Made by a program: the position numbers and the translations under genes. The notes under the pieces are model-generated. The model saw nothing but the letters and a program-made list of their open reading frames with translations, did not search any database and was not told the origin of the DNA. A stretch of 64,000 nucleotides of DNA from a virus: positions 1 to 64,000 of IMG/VR virus record IMGVR_UViG_3300035145_001165; one strand, 5' to 3'. Below are positions 55,935-60,511 of the stretch, piece after piece. How positions within the stretch are numbered: the first letter of the stretch is position 1; each line of letters starts with the position of its first letter.

Positions 55935-55971
55935 ATAGTAGCACAAAAAAAGAGGGGTGACAACCCCTCTC
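55935..55971 (-). terminator. Rho-independent terminator with an overlapping promoter
   Basis: AGAGGGGT-TGTC-ACCCCTCT plus a U-tract. TTGTCA-17-TACTAT overlaps it. Confidence 0.75.
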
Positions 55972-56128
55972 AAGAACTGATCTTCCAGTTTTTATTGCCA
56001 CGTGACTTGAGATCAACCCACTTGGCATAGTGTACACCACGGTACGTTAAGAACGCGAATGTTCTATCTGGATCGTGTTTAGCAGGATCATAGTCTGGAA
56101 GGTCATATTGAAATCTGACCTTCAGCAT
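55970..56128 (-). CDS. DUF4278-like small protein (52 aa)
   Basis: Read manually: MLKVRFQYDLPDYDPAKHDPDRTFAFLTYRGVHYAKW..., with an LTYRGVxY motif. Confidence 0.7.
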   Translation of the reverse strand: MLKVRFQYDLPDYDPAKHDPDRTFAFLTYRGVHYAKWVDLKSRGNKNWKISS

Positions 56129-56137
56129 TACCTATCC

Positions 56138-56305
56138 TCACTTGGTATAGGTATGACCTCTATAGCAGAAAGTACCGTGTACCTCGTCAGCATCACCTTG
56201 CTTGCACTCAAACTTGACACCGCGATAGGTAGTCATAGCAATCTGTGCATCGTGGAGAGCTGCTGCTTTCTTGATCTGCTTTTTGATTAGAGTAAGTGTG
56301 TTCAT
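56138..56305 (-). CDS. DUF4278-like 'downstream peptide' (55 aa)
   Basis: Read manually: MNTLTLIKKQIKKAAALHDAQIAMTTYRGVKF...FCYRGHTYTK. Two YRG motifs, directly after the aptamer. Confidence 0.75.
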   Translation of the reverse strand: MNTLTLIKKQIKKAAALHDAQIAMTTYRGVKFECKQGDADEVHGTFCYRGHTYTK

Positions 56306-56335
56306 TGTACTGAAATAATAGGGTTGGTTAAAACC

Positions 56336-56524
56336 CGTTCCTTCAGTCGTTTGCGTCCCAATAGTGACTACACTCAGGCACGGATTCCTTTACGGTCTCC
56401 ACTAACTCCACAACAATGTGAGGAGGAACCTCTGCTCTGTTCTTTTGGATCCTGAGCACTAATGCATCAGCATCAGAACAGATCATATTTGCATAGAGTA
56501 AAAACTCAACCATTGGGATGAACG
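56336..56524 (-). ncRNA. Glutamine riboswitch-like aptamer 2 (glnA/Downstream-peptide family) with an ORF in the P2 loop
   Basis: CGTTCA-TCCCAATGGT...[ORF]...ACTATTGGGA-CGCAAACGACTGAAGGAACG. Confidence 0.75.
56343..56513 (-). CDS. Riboswitch-embedded small protein 2 (56 aa, C-X35-C)
   Basis: MVEFLLYANMICSDAD...VPECSHYWDAND. The ATG lies in the P2 5' strand and the last codons in the aptamer 3' half. Confidence 0.7.
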   Translation of the reverse strand: MVEFLLYANMICSDADALVLRIQKNRAEVPPHIVVELVETVKESVPECSHYWDAND

Positions 56525-56527
56525 CTC

Positions 56528-56761
56528 CGTTCCGCGACTTACTTGCGTCCTCAGGTAAAGGTACCGCTACATTGACCTTCCACTTTTGTCTTGAGATATC
56601 CAATCAGATTCCACTTAGATCGTTGATCTAGGTTGGGATCCATTTGAATCTCCACTCGACGTTGGAGGAACCTTTCACAGGACATATGCCAACCATAAGG
56701 ATTGGCGTCATCGTGATGGGCAAGGGTCAATGCCAACAGCAGACTTACCATTGGATGAACG
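56528..56761 (-). ncRNA. Glutamine riboswitch-like aptamer 1 with an ORF in the P2 loop
   Basis: CGTTCA-TCC-AAT-GGTAA...[ORF]...TTACC-TGA-GGA-CGCAAGTAAGTCGCGGAACG, starting at the predicted +1. Confidence 0.65.
56551..56751 (-). CDS. Riboswitch-embedded small protein 1 (66 aa, hydrophobic N-terminus, C-X35-C)
   Basis: MVSLLLALTLAHHDDANPYGWHMSCERF...EGQCSGTFT. Confidence 0.7.
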   Translation of the reverse strand: MVSLLLALTLAHHDDANPYGWHMSCERFLQRRVEIQMDPNLDQRSKWNLIGYLKTKVEGQCSGTFT

Positions 56762-56768
56762 TACAGAC

Positions 56769-56798
56769 ATTATACGATGTCTTGTACTATGTAGTCAA
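56769..56798 (-). promoter_or_regulatory. sigma70-like promoter of the riboswitch operon
   Basis: TTGACT-18 bp-TATAAT, 7 nt upstream of aptamer 1. Confidence 0.75.
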
Positions 56799-56802
56799 GG
56801 TG

Positions 56803-56824
56803 TTTGGTATACTACTATACCAAA
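56803..56824. promoter_or_regulatory. NtcA-type binding site
   Basis: TTTGGTATA-CTAC-TATACCAAA is a perfect palindrome containing GTA-N8-TAC (56807-56820). Confidence 0.6.
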
Positions 56825-60349: not shown

Positions 60350-60466
60350 AACAGAAAAGTAAGACCATCAGGGAAATGGTGGAGTTACTATTTCCTCACC
60401 ACCCTCGGGTGAGGATATGAGAGACGTGATTTATACACCCTAGAGGTCTCGGTTTGTGGGGTGTTT
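60350..60466 (-). ncRNA. PhotoRC-II-like structured psbA 5' leader
   Basis: ACACCC/GGGTGT, GAGAC/GTCTC pseudoknot, TCCTCACC/GGTGAGGA and ACCAT/ATGGT helices upstream of psbA. Confidence 0.7.
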
Positions 60467-60511
60467 ACAACAGTCTAAAAAACGTTACGTTTCTTAACCG
60501 ATGATTTATTT

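Follow-up and report, generated by a model that had tools for sequence, protein, structure and literature searches.

Two small genes on the minus strand of a T4-like cyanomyovirus appear to lie within the hairpin loops of two consecutive aptamers. On balance, the locus as a whole is best explained by two genuine, probably paralogous genes, each encoding a mini-protein with a cysteine-bracketed helical hairpin and each nested in one of two tandem glutamine-type aptamers. The phage is the source of the window, that is, of the whole 64-kb stretch of DNA that was analysed, and the two ORFs together occupy positions 56343-56751, from the ORF2 stop to the ORF1 start. The region was matched by 413 phage records, nearly all of them from Synechococcus or Prochlorococcus phages, and the ORF1 and ORF2 genes are present in hundreds of marine cyanophage genomes and contigs. 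Through the predicted nesting, one and the same RNA would be contested by gene translation and riboswitch-aptamer folding, a situation rarely met in nature.

Gene Layout of the Locus

The features of the locus are compiled in Table 1. The strong promoter-like site would place the transcript start a few bases 5' of aptamer 1, and the hairpin at 55950-55971 is the probable operon end. Between these, the hairpin at 56321-56336 is possibly an expression platform, and the gene for the 55-aa YRG-motif protein is presumed to be the riboswitch-regulated gene. The match of this protein to DUF4278 (E 0.0013) fails the cut-off.

Table 1. Observed and predicted features around the two mini-protein ORFs (window coordinates).
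Feature	Position	Strand	Remarks
Promoter-like site, sigma-70-type, TTGACT-18-TATAAT	56769..56798	−	11/12 consensus matches
Predicted aptamer 1, 5' half, CGUUCAUCC	56753..56761	−	followed by one base, then the ORF1 start codon
ORF1, 66 aa	56551..56751	−	PHROG 6471, T4-GC 429, Syn9 gp196
Predicted aptamer 1, 3' half, GGACGCAAGUAAGUCGCGGAACGG	56527..56550	−	directly 3' of the ORF1 stop codon
Predicted aptamer 2, 5' half, CGUUCAUCCC	56515..56524	−	followed by one base, then the ORF2 start codon
ORF2, 56 aa from the ATG at 56513	56343..56513	−	PHROG 504, T4-GC 430, Syn9 gp197
Predicted aptamer 2, 3' half, GGGACGCAAACGACUGAAGGAACGG	56335..56359	−	overlaps the last codons and stop of ORF2
Weak terminator-like hairpin, GGGUU-UUAACC-AACCC, then U-rich run	56321..56336	−	consensus match only
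YRG-motif protein, 55 aa, PHROG 545, Syn9 gp198	56138..56305	−	weak DUF4278 (IF17-like) match
Second small YRG-motif protein, 52 aa, PHROG 6192	55970..56128	−	weak DUF4278 match
Intrinsic-terminator-like hairpin and T run	55950..55971	−	sequence pattern

A palindrome of the form GTA-N8-TAC (GTATAGTAGTATAC) was seen on the minus strand at 56807-56820, with 8 bp between it and the TTGACT −35 hexamer downstream. The terminator-like hairpin at 56321-56336 begins in the last bases of the 3' half of aptamer 2. Elsewhere in the window, a PhotoRC-II RNA is located at 60380-60476.

Predicted Glutamine-Type Aptamers Enclosing the ORFs

Each ORF was found to be flanked by CGUUCAUCC(C) on its 5' side and by GGACGCAA...GGAACGG on its 3' side, and the pattern CGUUCA...GGACGCAA...GGAACG was recovered from 83 of 83 related loci. 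An Rfam scan of the window for RF01739 and RF01704 gave no match even at E 10, because the aptamers carry inserts. S-SM1 and 20 further loci have a compact aptamer 1, in which a short hairpin replaces ORF1. The compact aptamer 1 of S-SM1 scored 28.9 bits (RF01739) and 25.5 bits against the glutamine riboswitch models, and the compact aptamer 2 of the L180 type scored 30.1 bits (RF01739) and 29.2 bits (RF01704); at 28.9-30.1 bits, the compact alleles fall below the Rfam gathering cut-off of 35 bits. The 3' half of aptamer 1 in the window, GGACGCAAGUAAGUCGCGGAACGG, is identical to that of the compact aptamers recognised by Rfam. Since the compact alleles match the riboswitch models, each ORF is assigned to the first hairpin loop of its aptamer.

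In a comparison of related loci, covering 29 distinct contexts, positions one to three of the aptamer 1 closing helix were paired without exception. Two-sided changes were evident at the third position (C-G 18, U-A 9, A-U 1, U-G 1), with covariation of the type UCC/GGA, UCU/AGA and UCA../..UGA. In aptamer 2, the first five pairs of the closing helix were fully paired in 37 contexts and almost invariant. In the most frequent variants, the AUG of ORF1 is base-paired to a segment overlapping the stop codon of the same ORF. The C-terminal WDAND* of ORF2 (56343-56359, minus strand) is encoded by what is also the core of aptamer 2, GGGACGCAAACGACUGA, and across 83 loci this tail varied at one residue only (N/H). 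Prochlorococcus-phage ORF2 proteins end in KDAKAD or WDANE, derived from their own core variants.

The ORF-bearing aptamers are thus predicted to be of the tandem glutamine-riboswitch type and would bind L-glutamine. In cyanobacteria, the glutamine riboswitch pairs with IF17-like DUF4278 genes (Klähn et al. 2018, PMC6212724). The phage locus shares with the glutamine riboswitch (RF01739/RF01704) of that report the core motifs, the tandem arrangement and downstream YRG/DUF4278-like proteins. It differs from the known riboswitch in that a whole conserved gene of ~170-200 nt occupies the first hairpin loop of each aptamer, and in that the mini-proteins themselves, unlike the genes under the known riboswitch, are not of the DUF4278 type. 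When ORF1 and ORF2 were tested against DUF4278/IF17-like (PF14105), neither a match nor a YRG motif was found; only the downstream pair matched, weakly.

Evidence for Coding

For the measurement of selection, IMG/VR and phage records supplied distinct homologous DNA sequences, 37 for ORF1 and 64 for ORF2. The pooled dN/dS was 0.17 for ORF1 and 0.21 for ORF2, and in both ORFs the entropy of the third codon position was 2-5 times that of position 2, which supports the assumption of an earlier note on this DNA that both frames encode proteins. Protein searches yielded 103 homologue clusters for ORF1 and 1044 for the ORF2-family profile. Judged from these substitution patterns, ORF1 and ORF2 are genuine protein-coding genes under purifying selection.

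Alternatively, the frames might be untranslated and the inserts structured RNA extensions of the aptamer hairpins, open by chance. Such a non-coding extension of ~30 nt does occur in the aptamer 1 hairpin of S-SSM7 (L213:525-591), and the start codons of ORF1 and ORF2, which lie in or beside a helix, have no obvious Shine-Dalgarno sequence. The strong codon-position bias and low dN/dS speak against this, as do the confident predicted folds of both proteins and synonymous codon change at conserved residues, with TGT as well as TGC used for the conserved cysteines. Homologues also exist outside aptamers, among them Bellamy gp59, an ORF2-family gene with GGAGG before its ATG. We therefore consider untranslated RNA to be a very improbable explanation and treat both ORFs as genes in the following.

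The internal methionine of the M-x-C motif was examined as the true start and rejected, as some members have Ile or Leu there and purifying selection acts on the N-terminal segment; the dN/dS of the N-terminal hydrophobic segments was 0.35 for ORF1 and 0.15 for ORF2.

Sequence Features and Catalogue Identity

ORF1 and ORF2 each possess only two cysteines, Cys25 and Cys61 in ORF1 and Cys12 and Cys48 in ORF2, with 35 residues between them in either case. Both have a methionine at position −2 of the first cysteine (M-x-C), the residues I-Q at inter-cysteine positions 10-11 and a hydrophobic N-terminus (MVSLLL in ORF1, MVEFLL in ORF2). The layout described in the earlier note, with its cysteine pair, M-x-C motif and hydrophobic N-terminus, was thereby confirmed in the translations of both ORFs. 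The motif around the first cysteine reads PYGW-H-M-S-C in ORF1 and M-I-C, with an acidic core, in ORF2.

Both proteins are full-length members of catalogued families. ORF1 matched PHROG 6471 with E 2.2e-39 (residues 1-66 on profile 1-66), ORF2 matched PHROG 504 with E 9.3e-21 (residues 1-56 on profile 1-53), and Syn9 gp196 was 71% identical to ORF1. The labels T4-GC 429 and 430 stem from GenBank notes on homologues in other phages, T4-GC 430 being attached to the ORF2 homologues of S-SM1, P-SSM4 and P-RSM4. ORF1 and ORF2 are adjacent and in the same order in Syn9, S-IOM18, P-SSM4 and P-RSM4. No family for either protein was found in Pfam (no match at E 1) or NCBIfam, and the literature search returned nothing on these two genes, their expression included, or on ORFs within glutamine aptamers. 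The catalogues list T4-GC 429/430 and PHROG 6471/504 as two separate hypothetical families, and a kinship between them, the conserved cysteine pair and the aptamer position are mentioned neither in these records nor in the literature found.

Conservation and Spacing of the Cysteines

Among Synechococcus-phage homologues, both cysteines were at least 90% conserved in both families. Small diverse alignments, with Prochlorococcus phages among their members, left W21, C25, D38 and C61 as invariants of the ORF1 family, and M1, L5, C12, E36 and C48, together with the aptamer-encoded D53 and A54, as those of the ORF2 family. On these alignments, no core residues are better conserved than the cysteines in either family, and the expectation that they are conserved held for ORF1 and ORF2 alike.

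The spacing of exactly 35 residues applies to ORF1 and ORF2 themselves but not to the families at large. In the ORF1 family it was 35 in 37 of 47 representative cores and 36-39 in the rest, and it ranged from 33 to 39 in the ORF2 family overall. The aligned Synechococcus-phage proteins of the ORF2 family have 34 or 35 residues (Syn9, 34), with other values elsewhere (P-HM2, 33; Bellamy, 37; P-SSM4, 38; P-RSM4, 39). The usual spacing in Synechococcus phages is 35 for both families.

Predicted Fold, Export and Role of the Cysteine Pair

AlphaFold models (AF2, family alignment) were obtained with a pLDDT of 82.8 for ORF1, with helices at 25-37 and 43-54 and a weaker N-terminal helix, and of 77.6 for ORF2, with helices at 2-24, 31-44 and 46-51. 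In both models, the cysteines enclose a helix of ~12 residues, a turn of 5-6 residues, a helix of 12-14 residues and a short linker, so that the helical hairpin postulated earlier between the cysteines is predicted for both proteins. A BFVD search with the ORF1 model had ORF2-family entries in the top 15, as weak matches with E ~1-2. A sequence search of the PDB returned only SPIN (E 0.1), and Foldseek against the PDB gave a best E of 2. The wide VIA-align search reached a best Z of 4.0 with generic helical hairpins, and the ESM Atlas yielded no matches beyond viral clusters of the protein itself.

Known small helix-turn-helix proteins whose hairpin can be tied by cysteines, one on each arm, include the disulfide-stapled CHCH twin-CX9C proteins and plant alpha-hairpinins as well as CP12, of which CP12 is likewise carried by cyanophages (PMC7760959). 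In contrast to CHCH proteins and alpha-hairpinins, the ORF1 and ORF2 families have one cysteine pair only, 33-39 residues apart and located where the hairpin is open, and no twin CX9C or CX3C. Alpha-hairpinin-type chains scored Z 3.2-3.3, and no significant sequence or fold match was obtained.

ORF1 opens with a hydrophobic stretch of 11 residues, the last four being LTLA, and HH comes next. Wider ORF1 relatives have longer leaders with basic, hydrophobic and small-residue (n/h/c) regions; the basic n-region is absent from most ORF1-family leaders. On the strength of these leaders, the ORF1 family is probably exported, to the periplasm or the thylakoid lumen. The suggestion that the mini-proteins are exported is thus plausible for the ORF1 family but is not supported for ORF2, which, like free-standing Bellamy gp59, has just 11 residues before the first cysteine and an acidic core. 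A lipobox at the first cysteine was discarded, as the residues preceding it do not fit.

If ORF1 is exported, its two cysteines could be joined in a disulfide, by which the hairpin would be closed at its open end. The pair might instead bind a metal or cluster, for example with four cysteines contributed by two monomers, in proteins that stay in the cytoplasm and have no intramolecular disulfide. Phage proteins from the reducing cytoplasm rarely have disulfides, ORF2 is without an evident signal peptide, and conserved histidines lie near Cys25 in Synechococcus-phage ORF1. These histidines are, however, not conserved in the wider ORF1 family, where W, C, D and C are the sole invariants; moreover, two cysteines per chain make a poor metal site on their own, and the signal-like leaders of ORF1 relatives do not agree with a cytoplasmic location. 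Metal binding is accordingly regarded as quite improbable, and a disulfide is a plausible role for the pair in ORF1.

Probable Relationship of the Two Families

The earlier note had taken the two ORFs as one divergent family. Pairwise comparison gave no indication of this: BLASTP of ORF1 against ORF2 found no similarity (E 0.57), hhalign with deep but narrow alignments of close homologues gave 0.3-0.9%, and the PHROGs place the two families in separate clusters. A cysteine-anchored, ungapped in-register profile score of close homologues was not above that of column permutations (z = −0.39). Because the in-register score was no better than that of permuted columns, the aligned IQ, previously cited as a shared feature, carries no weight as evidence of kinship.

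A different result was obtained with diverse profiles. Small diverse alignments raised hhalign to 31% (P 5e-4) over a match that spans M-x-C...C, a score reached by 0 of 200 between-cysteine shuffles. With core alignments drawn from an exhaustive HMM search, which supplied 75 ORF1-family representatives at 50% identity, hhalign gave 87% (P 3.8e-6) over 37 columns, with M-x-C placed on M-x-C. Untrimmed full-length diverse alignments gave 75% (P 2.4e-5). With the cysteines masked, the value was 55% (P 1.2e-4) and the register unchanged. None of the column shuffles, performed as two sets of 150, reached the score (maxima of 16.4 and 17.3 versus 27.1), while reversal of one profile gave 2-6% and swapping of the helix halves 0.7-5%. 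A circular-shift control gave no discrimination, small shifts being re-aligned by hhalign. With the ORF1 HMM, ORF2-family members outranked 558 six-frame decoys from the window; in the reciprocal search with the ORF2 HMM, the ORF1 family was not cleanly separated from decoys.

Values of 75-87% on profiles of ~40 columns are suggestive, and small amphipathic hairpins could converge. Unrelated genes may have been inserted independently into the aptamer loops, or become enclosed by them, and have come to share the hairpin layout by convergence. Besides the failure of pairwise and shallow-profile comparison and the separate PHROGs, this would fit the different N-terminal architecture and mean core net charge of the families (~ −0.3 versus −3.6), their occurrence each alone outside aptamers, and the finding that each loop is filled or empty independently of the other. 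Against it stand the co-linear alignment of the diverse profiles in a single register (P 4e-6 to 2e-5), a signal that outlasts cysteine masking and is gone upon shuffling, reversal or helix swapping, and the placement of the two ORFs in paralogous aptamers at equivalent positions and in the same phase. We consider independent origin unlikely, if worth keeping in mind, and conclude from the profile comparisons that the ORF1 and ORF2 families probably share common ancestry. The notion of a single divergent family is thereby supported as probable by the diverse profiles, which align in the register originally proposed, but not by BLASTP or shallow profiles.

Proposed Coupling of Translation and Aptamer Folding

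In the model that we favour, the two families would be distant paralogues within one superfamily. Each core would consist of a cysteine, a helix of ~12 residues, a polar turn, a second helix of ~12 residues, a short linker and the closing cysteine. The start codons are located in, or at, the helix that closes each aptamer hairpin; ribosome loading and aptamer folding should therefore exclude each other. Mutual exclusion would tie the synthesis of both mini-proteins to the glutamine status of the cell; this coupling is suggested by the anatomy of the locus. Homology, export, the disulfide and a role in nitrogen metabolism we infer, the last of these, as a role in nitrogen uptake or signalling, from the neighbourhood of the glutamine riboswitch and the IF17-like genes. 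Myoviruses show linkage to this module, podoviruses linkage to hli and psbA. A single superfamily bracketed by cysteines would offer one testable target, namely a small, possibly exported factor tuned to host nitrogen status.

A more far-reaching and speculative proposal, which in its entirety we think doubtful, is that of a phage-specific two-cysteine hairpin superfamily with at least the ORF1 branch exported, in which aptamer nesting gates translation to give opposite outputs. The folded, glutamine-bound aptamer would hide the start codon, and a translating ribosome would unfold the aptamer. If such gating were true, one transcript would give mini-proteins at low glutamine and IF17-like proteins at high glutamine.

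Free-Standing Relatives and Origin of the Nested Genes

Relatives of both genes occur outside aptamers. In L172 (1501-2174), a canonical glutamine riboswitch (RF01739, 52 bits) with a 63-aa DUF4278-type gene behind it has, as its nearest upstream gene, a free-standing ORF1-like gene of 67 aa, overlapped by a 59-aa ORF that has no cysteines. This arrangement implies that linkage to the riboswitch module persists without nesting. In podovirus contigs of the P-GSP1 type (L169:584-853, L214-L235), an ORF1-family gene without any aptamer lies between hli and psbA. In 15 of 15 loci examined, this gene begins within hli, read in the +1 frame, so that the DNA coding for the Hli transmembrane helix also codes for the leucine-rich, signal-like leader of the ORF1-family protein. 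A search for one ORF1 subgroup in representative prokaryote genomes gave no relative.

One protein, P0339, has the ORF1-like domain joined in frame to Hli. A true fusion was rejected, as the domain was in the +1 frame and unfused in 15 of 15 loci examined, and the P0339 sequence is probably a frameshift or assembly artefact. A search of IMG/VR for a further protein, P0335, found none.

Either loop may be filled while the other is compact. ORF1 is present together with a compact aptamer 2 in L180:1495-1775 and in L182-L186, and a compact aptamer 1 precedes ORF2 in the S-SM1 type (L003:1484-1527). Compact forms of aptamer 1 are scattered among insert-bearing relatives, which suggests that the loop inserts have been repeatedly gained or lost. 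Duplication of a cassette of aptamer and ORF, as originally proposed, is plausible and fits the probable homology and identical placement of the two genes; independent capture or repeated loss may be the alternative. In three metagenomic proteins (P0349, P0341 and P0353), the reading frame continues through the ORF1 stop and the 3' half of aptamer 1 (DASKSRNG...) into ORF2; these may be natural stop-codon variants or sequencing errors.
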